In this document: positions 48,668 to 61,967 of the stretch, piece by piece
Position numbering within the stretch: the stretch's first letter is position 1
How the letters are laid out: every line of letters begins with the position of its first letter
Source of the DNA: a bacterium
GTDB taxonomy: Bacteria; Lernaellota; Lernaellaia; JACKCT01
NCBI GenBank assembly: GCA_963674685.2
Contig: CAXXWT010000005.1
Location: forward strand, 595,450-659,449
Direction: 5' to 3'
DNA length: 64,000 bases
Program-made: the position numbers and the translations under genes
Notes under the pieces: model-generated
What the model saw: the letters and a program-made list of their open reading frames with translations, nothing else
Database searches by the model: none
What the model was told of the DNA's origin: nothing

Positions 48668-49666
48668 TTGAAAAAAATTGTCATTACGGGAAGCGCCGGA
48701 TTTATCGGATTTCATCTTGCCAAAAGATTTCTGGATGAAGGGCGCGAGGTCGTCGGCCTCGATAATTTCAACGATTACTATCCGAAAGAGATCAAAAAGC
48801 AGCGCGACGCGATTTTGCGCGAAAATCCTCGTTTCATCTCACGACACGTCGATATCGCCGACACCGCTTCAATTGAAAAAGTTTTCAAGGAATTCGAGGT
48901 CGATCTCATCGTCAATCTCGCGGCGCAGGCCGGCGTCCGCTACGCGCGGATCAACCCCATGGCTTACGTGCGGTCCAACCAGGTGGGATTTGCCAATATT
49001 CTCGAAATGGCGCGCCATCACGGCGTCAAACGAATTTTATATGCCTCGTCATCTTCGGTCTACGCCGGCGTCAAGGAGACGCCCTTTCGCGAGGATCAGC
49101 CCGTGGACCGGCCTATCAGCCTTTACGGCGCCACGAAGAAATCCAATGAACTGGCCGCGCACTGCTACACGCATCTATACGGCATACAGACCATCGGCCT
49201 GCGTTTTTTTACGGTTTACGGTCCATGGGGAAGGCCGGATATGGCCATGTGGATTTTTGCGGAAAAGATGCTGGCGGGCGAGCCCATACCGGTTTTCAAT
49301 TACGGCGACATGCGCCGGGATTTCACGTACATCGACGACATTGTGGACGGGGTGGCCCGGCTGTCTTTCGCCGAAGGGCTTAAACCCTATGAGATTATGA
49401 ACATCGGCAATCACCGAAGCGAAAAGCTCATGGACCTCATCGACCTGATCGCAAAAGGCCTGGGCGTGGACGTGAAATGCAACATGCTTCCCATGATGCC
49501 CGACGACGTTCCGGCGACCTATGCTTCCATCGAGCGGATCAACAAGGCCTGCGGCTTCGAGCCCAGAACCACGATCTCAGAAGGCGTCCCCAAATTTTTG
49601 GAATGGTACCGGGCTCATCCCGATCTGGCCGAAATCGTAAAAAACTGGCGGGACAAGTCAAAGTAA
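48668..49666 (+). CDS. NAD-dependent epimerase, UDP-glucuronate 4-epimerase-like
   Basis: TTG start after GAGGA. Motifs are ITGSAGFIGFHL, GLDNFNDYY, YGATKKSNE and RFFTVYGPWGRPDMA. Confidence 0.8.
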   Translation: MKKIVITGSAGFIGFHLAKRFLDEGREVVGLDNFNDYYPKEIKKQRDAILRENPRFISRHVDIADTASIEKVFKEFEVDLIVNLAAQAGVRYARINPMAYVRSNQVGFANILEMARHHGVKRILYASSSSVYAGVKETPFREDQPVDRPISLYGATKKSNELAAHCYTHLYGIQTIGLRFFTVYGPWGRPDMAMWIFAEKMLAGEPIPVFNYGDMRRDFTYIDDIVDGVARLSFAEGLKPYEIMNIGNHRSEKLMDLIDLIAKGLGVDVKCNMLPMMPDDVPATYASIERINKACGFEPRTTISEGVPKFLEWYRAHPDLAEIVKNWRDKSK

Positions 49667-49697
49667 ATCAAGGCTGTGCTCGGGGAAGAAGAAACCT

Positions 49698-49757
49698 CTC
49701 CTGCACAGCCGGGGGCGGCTGTGCCACACACGATCTGCCCGGGCGAAATATTTCACC
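49698..49757. repeat. dispersed hairpin repeat, copy B (CACAGCC-N-GGCTGTGCCACAC...AAATATTTCA)
   Basis: Copy B aligns with 16335-16392. The stem is cacagccg/cggctgtg. It runs directly into the 14-mer array. Confidence 0.7.
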
Positions 49758-49826
49758 TTTCACCTTGCCCCTTTCACCTTGCCCCTTTCACCTTGCCCCT
49801 TTCACCTTGCCCCTTCACCTTGCCCC
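49751..49826. repeat. tandem array of a 14-bp unit TTTCACCTTGCCCC (two 7-bp half-units), 4 perfect copies plus a 13-mer and a leading half-unit
   Basis: Units lie at 49758-71, 49772-85, 49786-99 and 49800-13, with a 13-mer at 49814-26. The array ends on the first base of the cysC stop codon. On the minus strand it reads (GGGGCAAGGTGAAA)n. Confidence 0.9.
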
Positions 49827-50428
49827 TATATATAACCCAGGTCTTTCAAGCGTTTCTTGATCTTCGCTTCTTCTTCCTCGCTGTACTGCGCGCCGTCCAG
49901 CTTTTCGAGATAACCGAGAATTTCCAGAGTCTGAATGATCCTGTCATGGCTTTGCTCGGGAGTTTCATTCGCCGTATCCACGCGAATTTCCGCGTCTTCC
50001 GGCGGTTCATAGGGATCACTGACGCCGGTGAAGTTTTTGATTTCGCCCGCCAGGGCTTTTTTGTACAGGCCCTTGGGATCGCGTTCTTTTAGAACATCAA
50101 TAGGGCAGTCCACGAAAACCTCCACGAATCGCCCGATCAATTTGCGGTTTTGATCCCGGATGGCTTTGTAAGGACTGATGGCCGCGGCGACGGCGATCAC
50201 ACCGTTTCGCGTCAGCAGATTGCAGACGTATCCGATCCGCAAAATGTTGATGTCCCGGTCTTCCTTGGAAAAAGAAAGGCCTTTGCTAAGGTTGGTGCGC
50301 ACTTCGTCCCCGTCGAGGACTTCGACGTTCAGCCCGCGCTCTAACAACGTTTCCTCGACCATTTCCGACAGCGTCGATTTTCCCGATCCCGATAATCCCG
50401 TGAACCATAAAGTAAATCCTTTTCTCAT
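49826..50428 (-). CDS. cysC: adenylyl-sulfate (APS) kinase with a ~25-aa C-terminal extension
   Basis: Motifs are [24 protein letters not shown] and FVEVFVDCP. The extension reads [23 protein letters not shown]. Confidence 0.9.
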
Positions 50429-50438
50429 CGCTTAACTC

Positions 50439-51830
50439 CTATTGATTCTTTTCAATGATGGATGTTCCGATCATGTCCTCGGGCACGTCCAGATCAAAAT
50501 AGTCGAGGATGGTCGGGGCAATGTCGTAAATCGAATATTTATCGCACTTCGTCGTCTTCTGGCCTTCGGGAAGGCTCAGGATGAAAATGCCGTTGTAATC
50601 GTGGTTGGCGTCGTCGGGGCCGGTGTCGTTTTCAAAGATATGAATTTCCCCGGTTCCGATCTGCGCGGCGCTGCGCCAATTGAGATCGCCGAAATAAACG
50701 ATCAGATCCGGCGCGACGTTTTTCACTTCCCTGTACAGATTCTCCGGGCGATGCACGACGGTGCCGATGTTCTCGCCCTTCTCGTCGACGATTCCCTCAA
50801 AGTCTTTTTGAAGCTGATCCCGGAATGCGTCATAATCATCGGATTCGATCACGCCCTGCGGCTCGCGGCCTTTGACGTTGATAAAAATGCGGCTGTAATA
50901 ACCGCCTTCGCCCCAGACTTTGGTTCGCGACCAGTCGATCATGTCGTTTTTCAATCGTCCCGGCTCTTTGGGCTCTTCCTTCAAGACCAGGTAGCCTTTT
51001 TGGATCAGCCACTCGTTGATGCAGATGGCGCCGACCATGGATTTCGCGCCGTGATCCGACACGACCATGACCGCGGTTTCGTCATCCAGAACCGCCAGCA
51101 GTTCACCGATTCGCTCGTCGAGGTATTTGTAGTAATCCCGGATGGCGTATCGATACTTGGAATCGGATTCGTGCAGGCGGTGGTTTTTCGCGTGGTAGCG
51201 CCAGAAGCCGTGATGGATGCGGTCCACGCCCATTTCCACCATCATGTAAAACTCGTGCTCGCCCTTTTTCAGCGCATCGAGAAAAACCTTGAAGCGCCGC
51301 TCGGTCATCTCGTAAATCTGATCGAGCAGCCAATCCTTGTCATTGGTGCGAAATTTCCGCACGTCGATCACGTAATCGCCCCCGGCGGCCTTGTCGATCA
51401 GCGCGGCGGCTTCCGGCGGGGACGTCCATTGCACGTCCTTGCTCGGCGCCAGGAAACTGCTGACCAGCACGCCGCGCAGTGGTTTCGGCGGGTAGGTCTG
51501 CGGCACGCCGAGAATGAAGCTGGAAAGGCGCTTGCGTGACAGATAATTCCAAACGCGTTTTTCTTTCACGTAATCGTTGTTGGCGAAAAACAGGTCGTCG
51601 TAGCCGTGATCGGCGCGGTTGCGGAATCCGTAAAAGCCGAGCTGCCCCGGGTCCTTGCTCGTCATCATGGCGGTCCACGCCGGAACCGTGATGGGAGGAT
51701 CGGTGCTGCGCAGAGGCGCGTAATGCCCCCGGTCCATCAGGCTCTTCAAATTCGGGAGGATCGACGCGAATTCATCGAACACCAGCGTCGGTTCGGCGCA
51801 ATCCAGACCGATAACGACCATTTTTTTCAT
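50439..51830 (-). CDS. alkaline-phosphatase-superfamily protein, type I phosphodiesterase/nucleotide pyrophosphatase-like (paralogue A, no signal peptide)
   Basis: Motifs are VVIGLDCAEP, PPITVPAWTAMMTSKDPGQLGFYGF, DRIHH and VVSDHGA. Confidence 0.75.
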   Translation of the reverse strand: MKKMVVIGLDCAEPTLVFDEFASILPNLKSLMDRGHYAPLRSTDPPITVPAWTAMMTSKDPGQLGFYGFRNRADHGYDDLFFANNDYVKEKRVWNYLSRKRLSSFILGVPQTYPPKPLRGVLVSSFLAPSKDVQWTSPPEAAALIDKAAGGDYVIDVRKFRTNDKDWLLDQIYEMTERRFKVFLDALKKGEHEFYMMVEMGVDRIHHGFWRYHAKNHRLHESDSKYRYAIRDYYKYLDERIGELLAVLDDETAVMVVSDHGAKSMVGAICINEWLIQKGYLVLKEEPKEPGRLKNDMIDWSRTKVWGEGGYYSRIFINVKGREPQGVIESDDYDAFRDQLQKDFEGIVDEKGENIGTVVHRPENLYREVKNVAPDLIVYFGDLNWRSAAQIGTGEIHIFENDTGPDDANHDYNGIFILSLPEGQKTTKCDKYSIYDIAPTILDYFDLDVPEDMIGTSIIEKNQ

Positions 51831-51885
51831 AATTCACTCCCTTGATTTAATGACAGTCGAAAATGTTGAATTTTGCAAAAAGCGT

Positions 51886-51992
51886 GTCATTCCGACCGGA
51901 GCGAAGCGTAGTGGAGGAATCCCTTCAAGAAAAACGAACCGGTTGCTTAAAGGGATTCCTCGACTCGCCCTGACGGGCTCGCTCGGAATGAC
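51886..51992. repeat. GTCATTCCGA...GGAATCCC palindromic repeat between the RHH gene and AP paralogue A
   Basis: The left arm gtcattccgaccggagcgaagcgtagtggaggaatccctt (51886-51925) faces the right arm aagggattcctcgactcgccctgacgggctcgctcggaatgac (51950-51992). Confidence 0.8.
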
Positions 51993-52034
51993 ATTGCGTT
52001 GGTCTTTCAATCGGTGCATTTATCGACAGCCTCT

Positions 52035-52259
52035 TTACAGATACCCGAGATTTTTCAGCCGCTTCTTGATGGCGGCGATCTCCTCAGCGGTCAATTCCTC
52101 GGCGGCTTTATCACTTCGCCCTTCGCTCATTTTCTCGCTCACCAGGTCACGCAGAACGTAAACGATGAACTCCGTCGGGCTGGAAAAGCCCGAATCCCCT
52201 ACGATCACGCGGATTTTATCATAAAGTTCGCGCGGGATTTTGATCGTCACTTTGCTCAT
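52035..52259 (-). CDS. small ribbon-helix-helix (CopG/Arc-like) protein with an acidic linker and a KKRLKNLGYL tail
   Basis: MSKVTIKIPRELYDKIRVIVGDSGFSSPTEFIVYVLRDLV fits a beta-alpha-alpha RHH. The tail reads AEEIAAIKKRLKNLGYL. Confidence 0.6.
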   Translation of the reverse strand: MSKVTIKIPRELYDKIRVIVGDSGFSSPTEFIVYVLRDLVSEKMSEGRSDKAAEELTAEEIAAIKKRLKNLGYL

Positions 52260-52361
52260 AAAGCACTCCTATAAGGCTCCAGATAGGCTCTGATTGGAGT
52301 GTACGCTTCGATAAATGCCTTGTCAACGCGAAAAAAGGAGGAAGGAGAAAATATGATGGAG

Positions 52362-52691
52362 GAAGGAAGAAGGAGGAATTCGGAATAGAGCCCGCCAGGG
52401 CGGCATAATTCAGCCCATCAGGGTGACAGAACAGAGCCGCGCACGAAGCCGCGCCGCCAGGCGCGGCGAGAGTAAGCGGGTAAATAGCAGCCCTGCGAAA
52501 GCGTCGGACTCAAGTCGTGATTCAATTCAGCACGTAAAGGCGACGCAATTCAGCCTGAAGGGCGTTATAATATCAGCCCCGGGCGTCAGCGCAGGGGATA
52601 AAGGGATTCCTGGGCATCAACTTTGCGCTGATGGGGCAACCCCCATGCAAACGGGCACAGGAGTCCGCCCTTTATTCCTCCTTCTTCCTTC
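52362..52691. repeat. inverted-repeat-bounded GC-hairpin-rich element in the divergent intergenic region
   Basis: A perfect 18-bp IR is present: gaaggaagaaggaggaat (52362-52379) faces attcctccttcttccttc (52674-52691). The interior contains several GC stems, e.g. gccgcgcc-gcca-ggcgcggc and agcccgcca..ggcggc, the latter also found at 18195-18216. Confidence 0.75.
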
Positions 52692-52694
52692 ATA

Positions 52695-52738
52695 TTTCAT
52701 CCTTTCATCTTGCCCCTTTCGCCTTGCCCCTTTCCCCT
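52695..52738. repeat. degenerate copy of the TTTCACCTTGCCCC array ~30 bp upstream of AP paralogue B
   Basis: The sequence reads tttcatcc tttcatcttgcccc tttcgccttgcccc tttcccct. Confidence 0.75.
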
Positions 52739-52769
52739 TAAACAATTATCCTGACAAATCTTCGATCTC

Positions 52770-54083
52770 ATGGAGATGAACATGGGAATTTTTTCGCGAA
52801 AGAAAACCAAGGCGATGGTGGTCGGGCTGGACGGCGTTCCGCATACGCTGCTCACCGACCTGATGGAAAAGGGCGTGATGCCCAACATGAAAAAGATCAC
52901 CGCGGCGGGCAATCTGCGCCAGATGGAAGTCACTGTGCCGGAAATATCGGCGGTGAGCTGGCCCAGCTTCATGACCGGCGTCGATCCGGGAACTCACGGC
53001 ATCTTCGGCTTTTCCGAACTGCGTCCCAACACATACGACATGTTTTTTCCCTGCTACAGCGACTTAAAAGCGCCGGCGATCTGGGACACGTTGGAAAAGG
53101 ACGGCAAGCGCTCCGTGGTTTTGAATCAGCCCGGCACGTACCCCGCCCGCCGCATAAACGGCGCGCTGGTTTCCGGATTCGTGGCCATCGAACTTCACAA
53201 GGCGGTTTTTCCGGCCAAATACATCGGAAAACTGCGCCGCCTCGATTACGAAATCGACATCGACACAAGCCGCGCCCGCGACAATCATAAATTCGCCATG
53301 CAGGATCTGGAGCGCACGCTGGAAGGACGCGTCAAGGCGGCGCAGCTTCTATTGGAGCAGGAGCAGTGGGACTTTTTCGAGGTCGTGGTGACCGGCACGG
53401 ACAGGCTGCATCATTATTTATGGCACGCGCTGGTCGATGAGAACCACGAGTTGCATGAAAAAGCGATCGATTATTACCGTAGCGTCGATAAATTCGTCGG
53501 GCAAATGGCCGACGCCTACGCACGGGCCGCAAAAGACGATTCCTTGGGCGGCTTTTTCATGCTCAGCGACCACGGATTCTGCGCTTTGGAAAAGGAAGTC
53601 GCCCTGACGCGCTACCTGGTCGAAACCGGTCTGATGGCTTTCGAGACCGACGCGCCGGAGCAACTGGGCCAAATCAGCGAATCCTCGAAGGTGCTGGTCA
53701 TGGACCCGAACCGCATCTACGTTCATCGAAAAGACAAATTTCCCAAAGGCGGCGTCGACGCGGCGGATGTCCCCAAGGTGATTGAAGACACGAAAGCCGC
53801 TCTTGAAGAACTTACGTACGACGGCAAGAAGCTGGTGCGCCGGCTCTTCGACCGGGAGGAAGCTTTCCACGGCCCGCTGGCCGGCCAGGGGCCCGACCTT
53901 GTGGCCGTGTCCATCGATGGATTCGACTTCAAAGGCGGCGTGGACCGCTCCGAGGTTTTCGGACATTTCGGCCTGTCGGGTATGCACAATCAATATGACG
54001 CTTTTTTGTGGACCACGAAATCCGTGAACGAGATTCCGCAAATCACGCAAGCGGCGGGGCTGATTCTCGATCATTTACGTTAA
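52770..54083 (+). CDS. alkaline-phosphatase-superfamily protein, type I phosphodiesterase/nucleotide pyrophosphatase-like (paralogue B, cytoplasmic)
   Basis: Motifs are MVVGLDGVPH, VPEISAVSWPSFMTGVDPGTHGIFGF, TDRLHH and MLSDHGF. The start is ambiguous among ATGs at 52770, 52776 and 52782. Confidence 0.75.
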   Translation: MEMNMGIFSRKKTKAMVVGLDGVPHTLLTDLMEKGVMPNMKKITAAGNLRQMEVTVPEISAVSWPSFMTGVDPGTHGIFGFSELRPNTYDMFFPCYSDLKAPAIWDTLEKDGKRSVVLNQPGTYPARRINGALVSGFVAIELHKAVFPAKYIGKLRRLDYEIDIDTSRARDNHKFAMQDLERTLEGRVKAAQLLLEQEQWDFFEVVVTGTDRLHHYLWHALVDENHELHEKAIDYYRSVDKFVGQMADAYARAAKDDSLGGFFMLSDHGFCALEKEVALTRYLVETGLMAFETDAPEQLGQISESSKVLVMDPNRIYVHRKDKFPKGGVDAADVPKVIEDTKAALEELTYDGKKLVRRLFDREEAFHGPLAGQGPDLVAVSIDGFDFKGGVDRSEVFGHFGLSGMHNQYDAFLWTTKSVNEIPQITQAAGLILDHLR

Positions 54084-54256
54084 GTTCCATGCATAAACTG
54101 ACATTTCAATTCGCCACAGCCGCGAAATGACCCCATCTTTCCTTTGAGGCAATAAGTTTGCCTGCTTGTTATCGGCCCAGGGTAATCATAGCTTGCTTGA
54201 TACCGCCGTACCGAAAGAGTATTGTCTGTTTCGTCGCAATATTGGCGAGGCTTTTT

Positions 54257-56365
54257 ATGCGAAAAATTACTCGATTCACCCTGCTTGTCACCGCGCTGCT
54301 GCTCGTCGCAACGCCGGCTTACGCGTACGTCGGCCCCGGCGCCGGTTTCGCTTTTATCACGAGCTTCTTTTTCCTGATCGCCACCTTTTTTGTCGCCCTT
54401 TTTTCGGTCATGATCTGGCCGATTCGCTTTCTGTTTATCTGGCTGCGCCGGCGGCGTGCGCTCAAAAACGCCAAAGTCAATAGAGTTGTGGTTCTGGGAC
54501 TGGACGGCATGGATCCGGATCTTACGGAGAAATGGATGGCCGAAGGCCACCTGCCGAATTTCAAAGCGCTTTCGGAAAAGGGGAGTTTTTCCCGGCTGCA
54601 AACCACGTATCCCGCGGTCAGCCCCGTCGCCTGGTCAAGCTTCATGACCGGCGCCAATCCGGGGCGGCACAGGATTTACGATTTTCTTTCCCGGGATAAA
54701 AACACTTATCTACCCACGTTGTCGTCCGCCTATATCGGCAACGCAAAAAAGACCATCAAACTGGGAAAATACCGAATCCCCGTCGGCAAGCCGGATATCC
54801 GCCTCCTGCGTAAGAGCAAGCCCTTCTGGGTCGTCCTGAGCGATCATGGCGTGCGCTCTTCGATTTTGCGCGTTCCCATCACTTTTCCGCCGGACAAATT
54901 CAAAGGTGTGCAGCTTTCGGGCATGTGCGTGCCGGATCTGCTGGGCAGCCAGGGGACGTTCAGCTTTTTCACGACCCGCGCCATCGACATGGGCGACGAC
55001 GCCGAAGGCGGCGTCGTTTTGCCTTTAACAAAAAGCGGCAAGGAATACCTGGGCGAAATCAAGGGACCGCCCAATTCGCTGGTGGAAGGCTCGCCGGACA
55101 TGATTCTGCCGTTCAAACTGAGCAAGGGCAAAAACGGCGCTTGCAAACTGACGCTTCCCGACAAAACCTACTGGCTTGAAGTCGGTAAATTTTCCGGGTG
55201 GTTGCCGGTGAAATTCAAAGCCGGCCTGGGAATCAAAGTTTCGGGCATCGCGCATTTCCTCGTCACCGAGTTCGGCGATGAAGTCAGCCTCTATGTGACG
55301 CCGATCAATTTGGATCCGGAGCGCCCGGCCTTTCCCATCACCAATCCGCCGGCCTATTCCATGTACCTGGCCAAGCAGATCGGCCCGTACGCCAATTTGG
55401 GGCTGGCCGAGGACACGTGGGTTCTCAACGAAGGTTTGCTGACCGACGACCAGTTCCTCAAGGAATGCGAATTGATCCACGAGGAACGGGAGCAAATGTT
55501 TTTCGACGCGCTGGAGAAAACTCGGAGCGGCGTGGTCGTTTGCGTGTTCGATGATACGGACCGGATACAGCACATGTTCTTCCGCTACCTCGAAAAGGAC
55601 CACCCGGCCCTTTCCCATTACCCGGAAAGCGACCGCAAGGACGCGATCCTCGATCTTTACAAAAAGACGGACGTCATGCTCGGGCGCGTGATGAACCAGA
55701 TCAAAAAGGACGACGCCTTTTTCGTGATGAGCGACCATGGATTCAAGCCGTTCGTCCGCGGCGTCAACCTCAACACCTGGCTTCACCAAAACGGCTATCT
55801 GGCTCTTAAACCCGACAGCAAAAAAGGCAAGTGGCTGTCAAACGTCAACTGGGAAAACACCCGCGCCTATCAGGTCGGCCTCGGCGGATTTTATCTGAAC
55901 CTCAAAGGCCGCGAGGCCAAAGGCATCGTCGAGCCTGGCGCGGAAGCCGAAGCGCTGATCCGGGAATTGATCGAAAAACTGACGAACCTGCCCGATGAGG
56001 AGAGGTCCGAGATCGGCATCAACGACGTCTGGGCGGCCACAGACATTTACAAGGGCCCCTACGTGGGCGAGGCGCCGGACCTGATCATCGGATATAACGT
56101 CGGATATCGCGCGGGTTGGGACGGCGTCACGGGCGTCATCACGGACAAGGTCTTCGACGACAACGTCAAAGCCTGGAGCGGCGATCACTGCATGGATCCC
56201 CGAAAAGTCCCCGGCGTATTGTTTTCAACTTCGAAAATAACAAAAGACTCCCCGTCGATCATGGATATCGCCCCGACAGTCCTGGGGCAGCTCGGCGTCA
56301 AAAAGCCCGGGTACATGGACGGCGAATCACTTATGGAGCAAGGTTCCAAGGAGGCGGTCTCATGA
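54257..56365 (+). CDS. alkaline-phosphatase-superfamily protein (paralogue C) with an N-terminal two-helix membrane hairpin
   Basis: MRKITRFTLLVTALLLVATPAYAYVGPGAGFAFITSFFFLIATFFVALFSVMIWPIRFLFIWLRRRR is followed by VVLGLDGMDP, YPAVSPVAWSSFMTGANPGRHRIYDF and MSDHGF. Trimmed to the ATG at 54257. Confidence 0.75.
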   Translation: MRKITRFTLLVTALLLVATPAYAYVGPGAGFAFITSFFFLIATFFVALFSVMIWPIRFLFIWLRRRRALKNAKVNRVVVLGLDGMDPDLTEKWMAEGHLPNFKALSEKGSFSRLQTTYPAVSPVAWSSFMTGANPGRHRIYDFLSRDKNTYLPTLSSAYIGNAKKTIKLGKYRIPVGKPDIRLLRKSKPFWVVLSDHGVRSSILRVPITFPPDKFKGVQLSGMCVPDLLGSQGTFSFFTTRAIDMGDDAEGGVVLPLTKSGKEYLGEIKGPPNSLVEGSPDMILPFKLSKGKNGACKLTLPDKTYWLEVGKFSGWLPVKFKAGLGIKVSGIAHFLVTEFGDEVSLYVTPINLDPERPAFPITNPPAYSMYLAKQIGPYANLGLAEDTWVLNEGLLTDDQFLKECELIHEEREQMFFDALEKTRSGVVVCVFDDTDRIQHMFFRYLEKDHPALSHYPESDRKDAILDLYKKTDVMLGRVMNQIKKDDAFFVMSDHGFKPFVRGVNLNTWLHQNGYLALKPDSKKGKWLSNVNWENTRAYQVGLGGFYLNLKGREAKGIVEPGAEAEALIRELIEKLTNLPDEERSEIGINDVWAATDIYKGPYVGEAPDLIIGYNVGYRAGWDGVTGVITDKVFDDNVKAWSGDHCMDPRKVPGVLFSTSKITKDSPSIMDIAPTVLGQLGVKKPGYMDGESLMEQGSKEAVS

Positions 56366-58362
56366 ACCGCGAATTAAAATATCTGATTATCGCGACGGCG
56401 CTGGTCATGCTGCTCGCCGGCGGCTGTGGTTCCGGCAAAAGCGCCCCGGCAAACGGCGAGGCCAAAGTCATGGTTCTGGCCTTTGACGGCCTCGACCCGA
56501 TCCTTCTCAATCAATGGATGGACGAGGGCGCTTTGCCCAATTTCGTCAAACTGAAAAAGGACGGCGATTTCAAAAAGCTGGGAACTTCGATCCCCCCGCA
56601 AAGCCCCGTGGCCTGGTCCAATTTCATTACCGGCCAGAATCCGGGCGGACACGGGATTTTCGATTTCATTCACCGGGATCCCAAGACCTATCTGCCGTTT
56701 TTATCCACCACGAAAACGCAGGCTCCGGAAAAATTCTGGAAACTCGCGGGCTATCAAATTCCCGTGGACGAAGGCAGCGTCACGTTGATGCGCCAGGGCA
56801 AAGCCTTCTGGCAATACCTTGCCGACGCCGGCGTGCCGGCCACCATTTTCTCCATTCCCAGCAACTATCCGCCGGTCGAAGGACCGTTTCGCTCGATATC
56901 CGGCATGGGAACGCCGGATCTGATGGGCGGCTACGGAAGCTTTTCCTATTTCACGGACGACCCGACGATTCCCAAAGAGGGCGAAGAGGTCACCGGCGGA
57001 CAGGTTTACCAGGTCTCGGTGGACAATGGAGAACTCAAAGCGGCGATTACGGGTCCGAAAAATACATTTAAAGTCGTCCCCGAGGGCGAATATCCGCCCG
57101 ACAGCACCGTCAAATTCACCGTCCACATCGATCCGGAAAACGACGCGGCGACGATCGATATTTCCAGGCAGCGCATCCTCCTGAATCGCGGCGAATGGTC
57201 CGACTGGGTGGGGATCGAATTCGAGATGATCCCCTACGCGGTTTCCGTCAAAGGCATCGTCCGGTTCCTATTGAAAAGCGCGCACCCGCACATCGGTCTT
57301 TACGTGTCCCCCATCAATATCGATCCGCGTGATCCGGCCCTGCCGATCAGCACGCCTCCCGAATATGCGCAGGAACTGGCGGATGTCGAGGGAGGTCCGT
57401 TCTACACGCAGGGCATCCCTGAAGACACCAAGGCTTTATCCCACAACATTCTGACCAACGAGGAGTTTTTGCAGCAGGCCCATACCGTTTTGTCCGAGCG
57501 GCTCAAGCTCTATGATTACGAGCTATATCGCTTCCAACGGGGATTTCTGTTTTTCTATTTCTCTTCTTCCGACCAGCTCACGCACATGTTCTGGCGCACC
57601 ATGGACCGCAATCACCCGGCTTATGATCCGGAAAAAGACGCCGCCTATCAGGGAGTGTTGAAAGACACCTACATGCGGATGGATAAAATCCTGGGCAAAG
57701 CCATGGACAAATTGGGCGACCAGGACGTTCTGATGGTGATGAGCGACCACGGCTTCGCTCCCTTCTACAAGTCGTTTCATCTGAACTCATGGCTTTTGGA
57801 AAACGGGTACGTTCAACTGCGTGACCCTGATGATCGAAGCGCAGATTTTCTCATGAACGTCAACTGGTCCGGCACCAAGGCCTATGCCCTGGGGATCAAC
57901 GGGCTTTATCTGAACCTGGGGGGGCGGGAAAGAATGGGCGTGGTTCCGGTTCACAGGGCCGACGCGCTGCTGGATGAGATATCCAATAAGCTCCTCGAAG
58001 TCGTCGATCCGGAAAACGGGAAAAAGGTCATCGCCAAAGTCTACAAAACCTCCGAAGTGTATAAGGGGCCCTATAAAAACCTGGCGCCGGATCTGATCAT
58101 CGGCTACGCGCGCGAATATCGCGGAAGCTGGCAAACCGCGCTGGGCAACTTCCCGGAAGGCGCGCTGATCGTTCCGAACAAAGATGAATGGAGCGGCGAT
58201 CACTGCATGGCGGCGGAAGTGGTCCCCGGAAGCCTGCTGGCCAATCGGCCGGTCAAATTGTCCGATCCGAAGCTGTACGATTTGCCCGTGACGATTCTGG
58301 AGCTGTTCGGTATCGAGCGTCCCAAGGATATGATCGGACACAATATATTTACCGGCAAGTAA
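56362..58362 (+). CDS. alkaline-phosphatase-superfamily lipoprotein (paralogue D)
   Basis: There is an ATGA overlap with paralogue C. The signal peptide has lipobox LLAGGC. Motifs are MVLAFDGLDP, IPPQSPVAWSNFITGQNPGGHGIFDF and MSDHGF. Confidence 0.75.
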   Translation: MNRELKYLIIATALVMLLAGGCGSGKSAPANGEAKVMVLAFDGLDPILLNQWMDEGALPNFVKLKKDGDFKKLGTSIPPQSPVAWSNFITGQNPGGHGIFDFIHRDPKTYLPFLSTTKTQAPEKFWKLAGYQIPVDEGSVTLMRQGKAFWQYLADAGVPATIFSIPSNYPPVEGPFRSISGMGTPDLMGGYGSFSYFTDDPTIPKEGEEVTGGQVYQVSVDNGELKAAITGPKNTFKVVPEGEYPPDSTVKFTVHIDPENDAATIDISRQRILLNRGEWSDWVGIEFEMIPYAVSVKGIVRFLLKSAHPHIGLYVSPINIDPRDPALPISTPPEYAQELADVEGGPFYTQGIPEDTKALSHNILTNEEFLQQAHTVLSERLKLYDYELYRFQRGFLFFYFSSSDQLTHMFWRTMDRNHPAYDPEKDAAYQGVLKDTYMRMDKILGKAMDKLGDQDVLMVMSDHGFAPFYKSFHLNSWLLENGYVQLRDPDDRSADFLMNVNWSGTKAYALGINGLYLNLGGRERMGVVPVHRADALLDEISNKLLEVVDPENGKKVIAKVYKTSEVYKGPYKNLAPDLIIGYAREYRGSWQTALGNFPEGALIVPNKDEWSGDHCMAAEVVPGSLLANRPVKLSDPKLYDLPVTILELFGIERPKDMIGHNIFTGK

Positions 58363-58373
58363 AGGAGAGTTTT

Positions 58374-58565
58374 ATGTTCGGACCGAAAGTAAAATTGGAA
58401 AAGGAACTTTTCGAACGCGTGAAAAAATTTGCCGGCCGGGCCGGTTATTCTTCGGTGGAGGAATTCGTCAGCCATGTGCTGGAAAAGGAACTGGCGCAGA
58501 TCGACGAAGGCGAAAGCGAAGAGGAAATCAAGAAGAAACTCGCGGGACTCGGTTACATCAGCTAA
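58374..58565 (+). CDS. small ribbon-helix-helix protein, paralogue of 52035-52259, with a KKKLAGLGYIS tail
   Basis: The RBS is AAAGGAGAG. The protein reads MFGPKVKLEKELFERVKKFAGRAGYSSVEEFVSHVLEKEL...GESEEEIKKKLAGLGYIS. Confidence 0.6.
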   Translation: MFGPKVKLEKELFERVKKFAGRAGYSSVEEFVSHVLEKELAQIDEGESEEEIKKKLAGLGYIS

Positions 58566-58577
58566 AGGACGCTAAAC

Positions 58578-59399
58578 ATGCTGAGAATTTCCAATGCGTT
58601 GGGATTTGTTTTCAAAGGCGTGATGGCTCCTTTCCGGTCGCTTCCCCTGACCGGAATGGTCGTCATCAGCGTGCTGACCGGCGTGCTGATGCTGATCATC
58701 TATAAATATACGTCCGACCAAAAGGGCATCACCGGCGCAAAGAATAAAATCAAAGCGAACTTTTTGGCGATCATGCTGTTTTCCGACAGTTTCATCGTTC
58801 TGCTGAAATCCATCGGGCGTATATTGCGGTGGAATCTTGTTTATATGGGCCACAACCTGCGCCCGCTGGCCGTGATGATCGCGCCGGTTCTTCTCCTGCT
58901 TGTGCAACTGAATTTCTGGTACGGCTATCGCCCGGTCGAGGTCGGAGAATCCGCTCTGGTGAAGGTCAAAACCGCCCGAAACGTGGATTTATCCTCAACG
59001 GACGCGGTGCTGGAAGCTCCCGAAGGCGTTACGGTCGAAACGCCCGCCGTCCGGGCGCCCCAAACGGGCGAAGTCACATGGCGCGTCGCCGGAGCCAAAG
59101 AAGGCGCCTATAACCTGATCGTTAAAATCGGCGATGAATTGAAAGAAAAGCGCGTTGTTGTCGGACCGCCTTCGAAGCTTCATGCGTTAGCGCCCCTGCG
59201 CCATAACGGCAATTTTGCCGACGGGCTTTTATATCCCGGGGAAAAGAAACTCACCGGATCCATCCGCTCGATCAGCGTTCAATACCCTGAAGTCAAAATG
59301 AATTTCTTTGGCTGGCATACTCACTGGATCATCGTTTACTTCATTCTTTCCATCGTCGCCGGACTGGGCATGAAGGGACTGTTCAAGGTCGACATTTAA
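58578..59399 (+). CDS. membrane protein of unknown function (N-terminal TMs, central beta-rich domain, C-terminal TM)
   Basis: 273-aa ORF 12 nt after the RHH gene. It has hydrophobic segments at both ends and no recognisable catalytic motif. Confidence 0.55.
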   Translation: MLRISNALGFVFKGVMAPFRSLPLTGMVVISVLTGVLMLIIYKYTSDQKGITGAKNKIKANFLAIMLFSDSFIVLLKSIGRILRWNLVYMGHNLRPLAVMIAPVLLLLVQLNFWYGYRPVEVGESALVKVKTARNVDLSSTDAVLEAPEGVTVETPAVRAPQTGEVTWRVAGAKEGAYNLIVKIGDELKEKRVVVGPPSKLHALAPLRHNGNFADGLLYPGEKKLTGSIRSISVQYPEVKMNFFGWHTHWIIVYFILSIVAGLGMKGLFKVDI

Positions 59400-59504
59400 C
59401 GGACAGCAACGATATATATTACCGGTGCACCATGTCGATTGTCGCGAGGCCGTTGTGCGTCGATATTGGATTCCACTAAACGTATTGAATCATGAAGTGG
59501 AATG

Positions 59505-61967
59505 TCAGCCGATAATCCATCCGACAAACTTGCGTAGCCAGGAACTTCTTTTTTCTTTTCCTTCGCCGTATCCGTAACCGTAACCGTACCCGTATTTATG
59601 GTCATAGCCCTTTTCTTCGCCGCCATAGCTATATCCGTCGCTTCCATATCCGTACCCGTATCCATAGCCGTATTTTTTACCGTATCCATACGACCGGTAG
59701 CGGGAAGCGCCTGTGCCCGTGGAAACCCGGTTAAGAATAATTCCCTTGATATCCGCGTTGACTTTTTGCATATGAGACAGCAATTGCGTCAAGGAATGCC
59801 CCTGTGAACGGCCCGATCGAACGACAATGTAAACGCCGTCCACCCAGGAAGACAATACAATCGGGTCGGCGAACAGCATGCCCGGAGGCGAATCCAGAAT
59901 CACGTAACGGTAACCGGCCTTGTCCGCCTTTTCCTGGAGAAGTTTTTTCATTTCATCCGAACTGAGAATTTCCGCCGGGAAGTTCGTGGTTTTTCCCGCG
60001 GTCATCACGTCCAGATTGGGCTGGAGATCCTTGTGGATGACTTCTTCGAGAGTCGCCTCGCCGGTCAGCACCTCGACAAGACCGATCGAGGTCTCGATAT
60101 CAAGCTTCTGTTCCTTGTGCAGGCGCGGATAGCGAAGGTCGCAGTCGATGAGCAAGGTTCTCTCGCCGCTGGCTCCCAGGGCGACGGCAAGGTTCATGGA
60201 TGTCGTGGATTTGCCCTCGCCGGGAAGCGGGCTGGTCATGAGGATGCGCCAGATATCCGTTCCCCTGGCCGTGAATCTGACATGCGCCCGTAAGAGCCCC
60301 GTTGCCTCGGCCAGGGGCGACTTAAACTCGGTCTGGCGACTTAAGGCCAGATCTTCGGATTGAACCTGTGGAATTGTCGTCACCACCGGGATTCCGTATT
60401 TTTGTTCGAGCTTGTCGGGGCTGGTGATCGGATCGATTTGATAATCTACATATATCGCGATAGCAATTCCCGACATCATTCCCATCATCATGCATATTAA
60501 AACAATCAGTTTCTTTCTGGGTTTGATCGGCCATCGAGGAGCTTCCGCGGGATCGATAATCGTGACATTGCTGACGACTTGGGCTCTGCGAATTCTTGCT
60601 TCCTCGTACGATTTGAGCAGGAAGAGGTATAATTCAGCGTTCACCGTCGAAGTTCTCGCCAAAGCCGCCAGTTGGCGTTCGGTCTCGGGGAGATCCTTCA
60701 GCTTATCCTCATATTTGACGATCAGCTCTTCGATGGTTTTCATTTCTTCGTTGATGGGCTCTAAAGCGTTGTCGATAATCTGGCTGATGCGGCTTTTCAT
60801 GGCGTCAATCTGAGTTTCCAGACTCTGAATCTTCACGTTTCCCTGGGCTAATTCACTGCTCAATGTATCCAAATTCACCATGGCGTCGGAAAGCTGCTTC
60901 ACCATGCCGGTCAGCACATCGTCGGAATAACTTGATAGATCCGCCAGTAAATAGCGACTGATTGATCCGCTTTTCAAGCTCAGACGGACGGCCAGGACGG
61001 ATTGCTTTTTAATTTCAAGATCGCTTTTTTTAATTTCCAGGCGTGAAATCTCGTTAATCAGCACCTTGGCCTCGTCCTGAAGAAGAAACACTCCTTTTTC
61101 GCTTTTATATTCGTTAAGAGCTTTCTCGCCGTTTTCCAGATTGTCGCGAATCACCGCCAGTTGCGTTTCCAAAAACTCCATCGTCTGACTGGCTTCCTTG
61201 CCCAACTCCCGGATGTTTCTATCGATATAAGCCTGGGTCAAGGCATTGGCGATGTCCCGGCTTCTTTCCGAACTTGGATTGAGCACGTTGACAAACAGCA
61301 CATCGCCTTTCGACAAGGCGCCCAGCCCCGCCACTTCGATGGCTTGCCGGAAATAAGTGACGGCGCTCTCCATGGTGACGCGGGTGATTTTAAGAACTTC
61401 ACTGAAATCCGGGTTCTCGGCGGCAATTAATATATCGACCAGCGGCGATTGAATCTGCTGTCCCAGTTTGGCTTGACCCAAAGGACCGAAATCATTGGAT
61501 TCCAGTTCATATTCGCCATTTTTAAAGTTAACGGTAACCACTTCATTGATCAGTTCGTCGGAAAACGACAAACGTTCGAATTCCAAGGCGTATTTTTCTT
61601 TGAGTTTCTCAAAGTTATCGCTGTAGGCATAGTTTAACTTGAGCTTTTCCACCACTTCCTGAACCAGCGTCCGACTCGACAGGATAATCCTTTCCCGATC
61701 GATTGCGGATCTTTTCATTCCACCAAAACCTACGCCGAGATCGGTGAAATCCATTGCTCCGCTGTATTCATCGATGGAAATAATGGCCGTGGCCTGATAT
61801 GCTTCCTGCATAAAAAAGACACTGATGACGCCAATGCATGCAGCCAGAAAGGTTATGGCGGCGATAAGCCGCCACCGACGCATGATAACGCCGGCGATGG
61901 TGTCGAGGCGAAAAAGATCGCTTTCGAGGATGGAAGACTGCGGGGATGGGGGCAGAGTATTATTCAT
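59505..61967 (-). CDS. polysaccharide co-polymerase/tyrosine autokinase (Wzc/GumC-like, PCP-2a) with a (GY)n tail
   Basis: An N-terminal TM plus Wzz-like coiled-coil periplasmic domain is followed by a second TM. The BY-kinase Walker A is PLPGEGKSTTSMNLA. The C-terminal tail is Tyr-rich. Confidence 0.85.
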   Translation of the reverse strand: MNNTLPPSPQSSILESDLFRLDTIAGVIMRRWRLIAAITFLAACIGVISVFFMQEAYQATAIISIDEYSGAMDFTDLGVGFGGMKRSAIDRERIILSSRTLVQEVVEKLKLNYAYSDNFEKLKEKYALEFERLSFSDELINEVVTVNFKNGEYELESNDFGPLGQAKLGQQIQSPLVDILIAAENPDFSEVLKITRVTMESAVTYFRQAIEVAGLGALSKGDVLFVNVLNPSSERSRDIANALTQAYIDRNIRELGKEASQTMEFLETQLAVIRDNLENGEKALNEYKSEKGVFLLQDEAKVLINEISRLEIKKSDLEIKKQSVLAVRLSLKSGSISRYLLADLSSYSDDVLTGMVKQLSDAMVNLDTLSSELAQGNVKIQSLETQIDAMKSRISQIIDNALEPINEEMKTIEELIVKYEDKLKDLPETERQLAALARTSTVNAELYLFLLKSYEEARIRRAQVVSNVTIIDPAEAPRWPIKPRKKLIVLICMMMGMMSGIAIAIYVDYQIDPITSPDKLEQKYGIPVVTTIPQVQSEDLALSRQTEFKSPLAEATGLLRAHVRFTARGTDIWRILMTSPLPGEGKSTTSMNLAVALGASGERTLLIDCDLRYPRLHKEQKLDIETSIGLVEVLTGEATLEEVIHKDLQPNLDVMTAGKTTNFPAEILSSDEMKKLLQEKADKAGYRYVILDSPPGMLFADPIVLSSWVDGVYIVVRSGRSQGHSLTQLLSHMQKVNADIKGIILNRVSTGTGASRYRSYGYGKKYGYGYGYGYGSDGYSYGGEEKGYDHKYGYGYGYGYGEGKEKRSSWLRKFVGWIIG

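Follow-up and report, generated by a model that had tools for sequence, protein, structure and literature searches.

Why should an enzyme of sulfate activation and two small putative regulators end in the same short peptide? The question is raised by a 64-kb stretch (64,000 nucleotides, the window) of contig CAXXWT010000005.1, from a bacterium of the Lernaellota. Three of its open reading frames (ORFs) have [IV]K.[KR]L..LGY[IL] as their C-terminal end: cysC, which encodes an adenosine 5'-phosphosulfate (APS) kinase, and two genes for proteins of ribbon-helix-helix (RHH) type, here called RHH-A and RHH-B. They lie among four paralogues within the alkaline phosphatase (AP) superfamily (AP463, AP437, AP735 and AP665) and the gene of a membrane protein, MEM273. 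The answer we put forward, with a confidence somewhat short of even, is that the tail is a protein-protein interaction helix, which would serve higher-order assembly of the RHH proteins and let the tail-bearing enzymes engage the same site, coupling regulators and enzymes. A search of the full-text literature found no description of the tail, the RHH family or the gene cluster.

The two RHH proteins finish with ...LTAEEIAAIKKRLKNLGYL (RHH-A) and ...GESEEEIKKKLAGLGYIS (RHH-B). In a six-frame scan of the window, L..LGY[ILVM] is found at the three ORF ends and at one internal site of CysC, LEILGYL, at the position where an APS kinase normally ends, and nowhere else. First-order Markov shuffling of the window, repeated 200 times, yielded on average 0.08 motifs anywhere (maximum 1) and none at ORF ends; scan and shuffles together rule out chance or a low-complexity artefact as the origin of the tail. 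The tail codons of cysC and RHH-A are identical at 24 of 33 nucleotides, and among the nine codons that specify the same residue in both, five show synonymous differences. Because such differences are so frequent, the likeness must be kept at the protein level and is no recent DNA copy, as a preliminary description of this DNA had argued; a recent duplication or gene conversion between the tails is ruled out. The three tailed ends are identical to those given there. Its statement that the three proteins are otherwise unrelated holds for CysC, a different host, but not for RHH-A and RHH-B, which are paralogues (full-length match in BLASTP, E 3e-11; 33% identity when aligned) and have the pattern V.I...LY......G[FY]SS..EF[IV].[YH]VL in common.

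CysC is, by all comparisons made, a complete APS kinase. It passes NCBIfam model NF002059 (score 259.1 against a cut-off of 244), and its AlphaFold2 (AF2) model (mean predicted local distance difference test, pLDDT, 92.8; predicted template modelling score, pTM, 0.89) matches structure 5cb8 in Foldseek (E 3e-19, root mean square deviation 1.4 Å, 176 columns), with the tail left uncovered. The body resembles standard APS kinases (PF01583; PDB 5cb6, 7yq0, 2gks) at 55% identity and a template modelling score of about 0.96 normalised to the target, whereas residues 176–200 have no counterpart in any solved structure. Since every solved APS kinase ends near CysC residue 175, in sequence and in structure, the extension of 25 residues is real, and the earlier estimate that CysC runs about 25 residues beyond the usual length holds against all solved structures. 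Of the 120 closest homologues (71–82% identity, 199–203 amino acids, aa), 119 retain the tail, with the consensus YSxEEExxIK[KQ]RLKDLGY[IL], and by this measure it is old on CysC. A metagenome locus (L111) has a tail-less cysC followed by a separate 71-aa RHH protein bearing a CysC-type tail (YTSDEEEEIKRRLRALGYIG), and in the Halanaerobiales RHH-A follows cysC; these two arrangements suggest that cysC acquired its tail when it was fused to the 3' end of an RHH gene lying downstream of it.

The AF2 monomer of RHH-A has a non-helical segment (residues 1–9, with conserved VTIKIPR) followed by helices at 10–20 and 28–44, as expected of an RHH protein, the beta-ribbon of which forms only in the dimer; a disordered segment (47–53) then leads to a tail helix at 58–71. 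No curated Pfam RHH model matched RHH-A or RHH-B at E <= 0.01, and the sole NCBIfam match of the RHH proteins is a weak one to CdrS (E 0.0039; 17 bits, where the cut-off is 100). A PDB sequence search returned no solved relative of RHH-A, and Foldseek with its model nothing significant. Homologues of RHH-A are labelled "Arc/MetJ-type RHH" or "CopG family" in their source databases, and despite the missing Pfam match the predicted architecture, together with the operator described below, is typical of RHH proteins.

Full-length RHH-A homologues number 446, and at least 528 species-representative genomes have a gene for a relative. These are mostly metagenome-assembled genomes, of Planctomycetota, Halanaerobiales, Krumholzibacteriia, Latescibacterota, Desulfobacterota, Myxococcota, Thermotogota, KSB1, Aminicenantes and Eisenbacteria. 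Among the matches listed, 120 of 120 RHH-A homologues carry the tail, with the consensus LTxEEIxAIKxRLKNLGYL behind a linker of variable length, and L68, G72 and Y73 are invariant in the family alignment. Orthologues of RHH-B occur in about 30 loci, always in the order AP665 - RHH-B - membrane protein, and among the matches listed all end in ..GLGYIS. Since every listed RHH-A homologue bears it, the tail is ancestral and integral in both RHH families, and CysC is the sole truly different host in the window.

The module as a whole spans about 20 residues: a linker that is acidic or contains Ser/Thr, one amphipathic basic helix and, at the C-terminus or adjacent to it, a G-Y-[ILF] cap. Helix positions 1, 4, 5 and 8 ([IV], [RK], L and L) are conserved along with the cap, variation is seen at positions 3 and 6, and each family has its own residue at position 7 (N in RHH-A, D in CysC and G in RHH-B). 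In these three host families the conservation of the tail far exceeds that of the flanking linker. One conserved helical face on unrelated folds argues for a docking or oligomerisation helix, and the disordered linker between fold and tail helix in the RHH-A model is consistent with it.

The tail also occurs on other proteins. When 1.84 billion representative proteins were screened with a profile built from the tails of RHH-A and CysC (E <= 1e-3), 290 matches resulted: RHH proteins, CysC, fragments at contig ends, about 16 low-complexity false positives and two further groups. The first group consists of PF01663 enzymes of 520–575 aa with a terminal tail (P0312, P0349, P0367, P0371, P0377). 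The second consists of CysC-like proteins with a degenerate P-loop (LTGASPALAASV in place of GLSGSGKST in one example) and an intact tail (P0293, P0326, P0345, P0347, P0363, P0335, P0285; L088:308-847). The gene of P0293 lies between AP463-like and AP437-like genes, which is the place of cysC in the window, and proteins of this group may be pseudo-kinase sensors of APS or 3'-phosphoadenosine 5'-phosphosulfate (PAPS), or scaffolds. As the profile scores RHH-B tails and the endings of sulfatases and tetratricopeptide repeat (TPR) proteins poorly, the search under-samples both types. A metagenome scan with a three-sequence query alignment found about 20 loci with tailed AP enzymes, often as tandem pairs. 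Small tailed RHH genes stand immediately 3' of tail-less AP genes in L117, L118, L129, L147 and L151, and L125 has the motif at the end of three genes in a row: an AP gene, RHH-A and a CysD-like PF01507 gene (QKLRALGYL). Presence on PF01663 enzymes and on degenerate CysC-like proteins fits a portable interaction module.

The CysD-like PF01507 proteins (L097:6647-7498, L125:512-1339) end ...MQKLRALGY[LM] and adjoin tailed AP and RHH genes. Colinear with these ends is that of Escherichia coli CysD (...SMELKKRQGYF; L155:4422-5330), the small subunit of the heterodimeric ATP sulfurylase, which likewise has a basic helix followed by G-Y-hydrophobic; it differs in leucine register, and homology with the tail is unproven. 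A basic helix with a C-terminal G-Y-hydrophobic ending may be an old feature of sulfate-activation proteins.

Upstream of RHH-A, the best promoter-like site within positions 49600–59600 is a TTGACA-17 nt-TACACT sequence, and its -10 element is overlapped by an operator-like array that ends right before the start codon, with direct half-sites 10–11 nt apart (Table 1). ACTCC-N4-GGAGT arrays, tandem or inverted, precede RHH-A in many phyla (loci L001-L086). The fetched loci, 1.21 Mb in all, contain 84 relaxed palindromes, of which 40 are located in the 200 nt upstream of RHH-A; one or more is present there in 38 of 83 loci. From this candidate operator at its own promoter, RHH-A is predicted to be a DNA-binding autoregulator of its operon, and the operator marks a putative, previously undescribed family of RHH regulators beside genes of sulfate uptake and activation. 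Tandem operator sites one helical turn apart normally need contacts between adjacent RHH dimers; with sites so spaced, the C-terminal helix of RHH-A on its flexible linker is an obvious candidate for the contact.

The setting of these genes is conserved as well. The window proteins were compared with the ORFs of 80 reference-genome loci, and RHH-A homologues were located on their contigs. The recurrent order is RHH-A(tail) - sat - AP463 - cysC - AP437 - AP735 - AP665 - RHH-B(tail) - MEM273, complete in L014, L069, L073 and L080 and without sat in L012 and L020. The cluster is spread over more than 10 phyla, including Planctomycetota, Krumholzibacteriia, Latescibacterota, Desulfobacterota, Myxococcota and KSB1. 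In the window it forms two divergent operons, that of RHH-A, AP463 and cysC being inverted relative to the genes from AP437 to MEM273; neither cysD nor sat is present in the window. Planctomycetota have RHH-A - sat - X - cysC (tail-less) - AP735 - AP665 - RHH-B - MEM273, the Halanaerobiales only sat - cysC (tail-less) - RHH-A, and in one genome of the Aminicenantes RHH-A and a sulfate ABC transporter are divergent. The constant neighbours of RHH-A are genes of sulfate uptake and activation (sat, cysC, sulfate ABC transporter) and those of RHH-B the AP735-AP665-membrane-protein module, and the conserved cluster in other genomes bears out the link that had been drawn between the tail, PAPS synthesis and the PF01663 paralogues. 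Absence of the tail from orthologous loci, named in the preliminary description as a finding that would speak against its idea, is not what these genomes have: the tail is conserved at the protein level in orthologous loci of many phyla, and for this reason the grounds given there for abandoning the idea fall away.

Among 64 non-redundant reference-genome loci with cysC, the CysC tail is found in 21 of 21 with a soluble AP463/AP437-type gene and in 0 of 43 without one. Host phylogeny is not the whole explanation of this split, since one locus of the Planctomycetota (L025) has both features and its relatives neither.

Taken as an interaction helix, the tail would allow RHH dimers to build higher-order complexes on the tandem operator, as Mnt does with its C-terminal helix. 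RHH-A would act as autorepressor of the sulfate-activation operon, with RHH-B inside the AP735-AP665-membrane-protein module. The same tail would have been grafted onto one clade of APS kinases and, elsewhere, onto PF01663 enzymes and degenerate CysC-like proteins. Because these pathway enzymes carry the same binding face, the tail could recruit CysC, and in other genomes AP enzymes, to those assemblies or to one common receptor. Docking would be either on other tails or on a receptor, for which a domain of the AP superfamily is the most plausible candidate. In this way the supply of PAPS, the AP enzymes and the cluster's transcription would be coupled both physically and in their regulation, with possible feedback.

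Several observations weigh against such a shared interaction. The RHH-A tail could simply be an oligomerisation helix of the kind known from Mnt of phage P22, in which a C-terminal helix behind the RHH domain tetramerises the protein through a four-helix bundle that joins two dimers. RHH-A is like Mnt in its N-terminal RHH fold, linker and single C-terminal helix and in its repeated operator half-sites, and its architecture, as seen in a monomer model, is compatible with a Mnt-like tetramer; the differences are that the two have no detectable sequence relation, that the tail helix has just about 14 residues and that the tail is also found on enzymes. The 21:43 split itself has in part a phylogenetic origin, since all the tailed CysCs belong to a single clade. 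In the metagenome loci L111 and L116 the order RHH-A - sat - AP (460 aa, AP463-like) - cysC goes with a tail-less CysC, and in the Halanaerobiales and Aminicenantes RHH-A keeps its tail with no AP gene within 10 kb. A looser ending, [ED]..L+xLGY[LI], closes several sulfatase, PF01663 and TPR-like proteins of the 80 reference loci, most of which have lipoprotein signals. Those of them that were scored fit the tail profile poorly, and the proteins are possibly related to the tail family, not established members. Because they are predicted to be exported, a single cytoplasmic partner cannot explain their endings, and if they are related to the tail the partner cannot be purely cytoplasmic. The strongest counter-evidence is the AF2 model of CysC, where the tail is confidently placed as a helix (184–196; pLDDT about 85 in the linker and 93 in the last 10 residues).

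The TPR-like examples of the looser ending (L037:9146-9625(-), L046:329-820(-), L056:1629-2246(-)) are small proteins of the Planctomycetota, divergent from RHH-A. Further lipoproteins with this ending are a sulfatase and a PF01663 protein, at L041:6258-7751(-) and L040:4939-6918(-). As a separate matter, specific docking of the CysC tail on AP463 or AP437 was considered and is weakened by L111, L116 and by AP enzymes that have a tail of their own.

The explanation that survives best beside the interaction helix, although we regard it as doubtful, takes the tail for a structural helix, packed in cis or inside the homo-oligomer of each host and lacking any shared partner, the likeness being due to common descent of a small mobile, exon-like C-terminal piece and to a generic LxxLGY cap (presumably a helix-capping pattern of Schellman type). 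It would account for the placed tail of CysC. It is also favoured by two body positions at which tailed and tail-less CysCs differ, L29 (instead of K/R) and T167 (instead of Y/H/W), on helices 17–30 and 157–170 of the model; these clade-specific differences suggest that the tail is packed on CysC itself or on a partner subunit. L..LGYL is, moreover, an ordinary internal element too, in CysC (LEILGYL) and in an AP437 orthologue (..LSELGYLRF), and the looser versions on exported lipoproteins would be accommodated. Yet surfaces as unrelated as those of an RHH protein, a P-loop kinase and an AP fold would not hold I-K-x-R-L-x-x-L-G-Y constant from family to family and phylum to phylum, degenerate CysC-like proteins drop the P-loop and retain the tail, and in RHH-A the tail is set off from the fold by a disordered linker of variable length.

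Quite unlikely, in our view, is a membrane-targeting helix of the MinD/FtsA kind, which would recruit the RHH proteins, CysC and soluble AP enzymes to the inner membrane, the place at which a lipid-linked substrate would be acted on by AP735, AP665 and MEM273. Like the end of E. coli MinD (...EEEKKGFLKRLFGG), the tail is extremely C-terminal, basic and amphipathic, with acidic residues before it, and its hydrophobic moments (0.25–0.48) lie within those of MinD/FtsA targeting sequences (0.11–0.57), a comparison that does not discriminate. The cluster itself, with its putatively membrane-bound proteins, is situated in a polysaccharide-export locus in the window, and tailed AP enzymes (L087, L089) adjoin polysaccharide-type genes which, read by eye, are flippase- or O-antigen-ligase-like. 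Membrane-targeting helices conserve amphipathicity, however, not sequence, whereas L, G and Y of the tail are invariant across phyla; the RHH-B tail has a net charge of 0, the hydrophobic face has just 3–4 residues, and a constitutive membrane anchor is awkward for a DNA-bound repressor.

A ligand-controlled switch is very unlikely. Here the tail would be, for example, an autoinhibitory lid or a sensor for APS, PAPS, 3'-phosphoadenosine 5'-phosphate or sulfate, acting through its K/R cluster, docked on CysC in one state and freed in another, and on RHH-A it would be a co-repressor-binding element. The conserved basic residues, the confident cis-docked state in the CysC model, the constant company of RHH-A (sat, cysC or a sulfate ABC transporter) and the sensor-like retention of the tail by P-loop-less CysC-like proteins would all agree with it; against this, about 15 residues are very small for a specific nucleotide site, and the metagenome scan includes tailed AP enzymes in loci with no sat or cysC within reach, which do not fit a sensor.

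A C-terminal degron or a protease or chaperone tag (HbYX/GQYL- or ClpX C-motif-like) that co-regulates the stability of the pathway proteins is hardly credible: many copies do have a penultimate Tyr and a hydrophobic last residue (GYL/GYI), which we take to resemble GQYL/HbYX tails, but many members run 1–20 residues past GY[LI] (GYLD, GYIS, GYLE, GYLPSPLQEQ...), which means that no free carboxylate at a set distance is needed and excludes a strict C-terminal insertion of either the HbYX/GQYL or the CysK type, co-degradation of a repressor with the enzymes it represses would be incoherent, and to our knowledge most host phyla have no 20S proteasomes. An HbYX/GQYL proteasome-activator tail, in which Tyr is penultimate to the free C-terminus, was rejected on the same endings.

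Among known systems, two others come close to the interaction helix. RHH antitoxins of type II (ParD, RelB, FitA) have a disordered C-terminal tail that folds on the toxin, with conditional cooperativity as the outcome. RHH-A is like them in its flexible linker and C-terminal helix, its first place in the operon and an operator that overlaps the promoter; it is unlike them in its metabolic neighbours and in being chromosomal and conserved across phyla beside sulfate genes. As a type II antitoxin RHH-A was rejected, no toxin being adjacent and the neighbours in more than 80 loci being Sat, PF01663, CysC or a sulfate transporter. The second system belongs to sulfur assimilation, as the present cluster does. 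The C-terminal tail of CysE docks into CysK in the cysteine synthase complex, and CymR and CdiA-CT copy it; tails of this kind require a C-terminal Ile and are inserted as an extended peptide. The common feature is a short C-terminal peptide on unrelated proteins, including a transcription factor, for one docking enzyme; the preliminary description, with its docking or oligomerisation peptide for a common partner, had proposed this very logic. The present tail differs as a capped helix that ends in L, I, F or M, or in extra residues (D, E, S or longer). In the reference loci read, the CysK gene is not part of the conserved cluster; with the C-terminal Ile not invariant and CysK not found as a partner, assignment to the CysK-docking type was rejected. 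By analogy, the proposed coupling of tail, RHH protein and enzyme would correspond both to toxin-bridged RHH antitoxins and to CymR-CysK/CysE.

The positions of the genes and control elements are collected in Table 1.

Table 1. Genes, tails and control elements of the cluster, with positions in the window
Feature	Position	Strand	Basis
cysC, APS kinase with intact P-loop, 200 aa	49826..50428	-	PF01583 E 2.4e-61, residues 3-151
CysC tail, residues 176-200	49829..49903	-	linker, helix 184-196 and LGYI cap
AP463, soluble PF01663 paralogue, tail-less	50439..51830	-	PF01663 E 3e-44; between sat and cysC elsewhere
RHH-A, predicted RHH autoregulator with tail, 74 aa	52035..52259	-	homologues, AF2 fold, upstream operator
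RHH-A tail, LTAEEIAAIKKRLKNLGYL	52038..52094	-	family consensus
Candidate operator array, ACTCCAATCAGAGCCTATCTGGAGCCTTATAGGAGTG	52264..52300	-	one inverted and three direct GGAG-type half-sites
Putative sigma-70-type promoter of the RHH-A/AP463/cysC operon, TTGACA-17 nt-TACACT	52298..52326	-	10/12 positions
AP437, second soluble PF01663 paralogue, tail-less	52770..54083	+	PF01663 E 5.6e-37
AP735, PF01663 paralogue, hydrophobic N-terminal segments followed by RRRR	54257..56365	+	PF01663 E 4.2e-35
AP665, PF01663 paralogue, lipoprotein-like signal (…LLAGGCGS)	56365..58362	+	PF01663 E 4.8e-34; synteny
RHH-B, RHH-A paralogue with tail, 63 aa	58374..58565	+	BLASTP against RHH-A, synteny
RHH-B tail, SEEEIKKKLAGLGYIS	58515..58562	+	sequence reading and orthologue endings
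MEM273, membrane protein, last gene of the module	58578..59399	+	synteny

Judged by their sequences, AP463 and AP437 are probably soluble, AP735 membrane-anchored and AP665 an exported lipoprotein. Orthologues of AP463 hold the same position in L001, L005, L014, L069 and others, and those of AP437 come after cysC in L005, L012, L014, L069 and others. The probable start of AP735 is the ATG at 54257, inside the ORF 54158-56365. Searches of PDB by sequence gave no solved relative of AP463 or AP735. MEM273, which starts 12 nt past the stop codon of RHH-B, has no Pfam or NCBIfam match; its orthologues (23–38% identity) directly follow RHH-B in about 25 loci, and the AP735-AP665-RHH-B-membrane-protein module is conserved among the reference loci. 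In the Planctomycetota, gene X (L032:11405-12322, L074:11561-12511) encodes a sulfatase-like protein of the AP superfamily, of 305–316 aa, between sat and cysC in the place of AP463. It matches PF00884 (E ~6e-10) and has TAPSH and DHGE motifs, and it may be the enzyme of the pathway that handles sulfate or a nucleotide. With its position, an AP-superfamily enzyme beside PAPS synthesis is a recurring theme.

Two arrangements bring RHH-A and AP735 close together. In a locus of the Myxococcota (L041:9992-12381) the RHH-A stop codon overlaps the AP735 start by 4 nt, with neither sat nor cysC between, and in the database protein P0316 RHH-A and its tail continue directly into the N-terminal membrane segment of AP735. 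Together they suggest a tight translational coupling of the RHH regulator with the membrane AP enzyme.

The RHH-A/AP463/cysC operon is flanked on both sides, at 49742-49836 and 52687-52753, by a 14-nt tandem repeat (CCTTTCACCTTGCC), found as 5 and 3 overlapping 39-nt matches, or roughly 7 and 5 units, which may mark the boundary of a rearrangement or insertion. The 204-nt gap between RHH-A and AP463, where most other genomes have sat, is occupied by nested inverted repeats (51885-51993) with 23-nt arms at 51910-51932/51943-51965 and 14-nt arms at 51885-51898/51980-51993. They might represent a remnant, act as an attenuator or terminator, or form a small repeat element. Elsewhere in the window (59505-61967, minus strand) lies the gene of a Wzc-like polysaccharide co-polymerase/tyrosine autokinase with an unusually long C-terminal Tyr cluster, composed of GY repeats (...YGYGKKYGYGYGYGYGSDGYSYGG...KYGYGYGYGYGEG...).

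C-terminal oligomerisation or docking helices on RHH regulators and docking peptides in sulfur metabolism are both known kinds. What appears to be new is the tail module, the fact that it is shared by APS kinases, enzymes of the AP superfamily and two families of RHH proteins, and the cluster it marks, which joins PAPS synthesis with four AP-superfamily paralogues. A further idea, which we consider unlikely, is that the cluster is an undescribed sulfation (or APS/PAPS-using) machinery of AP-superfamily enzymes in place of canonical sulfotransferases, in which enzymes (CysC, AP enzymes and P-loop-less CysC-like sensors) and RHH repressors compete or co-assemble through one tail-binding site; no recognisable sulfotransferase was found among the genes examined. 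Were this true, enzyme abundance or ligand state would directly set operon transcription, a conditional cooperativity of the antitoxin kind in a metabolic pathway. Even as a cis-packing helix, the tail would be a useful marker of the cluster in genomes. As an interaction module it would offer a simple handle on an uncharacterised cluster of hundreds of mostly uncultivated species, would define a new family of sulfate-assimilation regulators, of RHH type and with a readable operator, and would be the second case, after CysE/CysK/CymR, of C-terminal peptides that wire sulfur enzymes to transcription factors.

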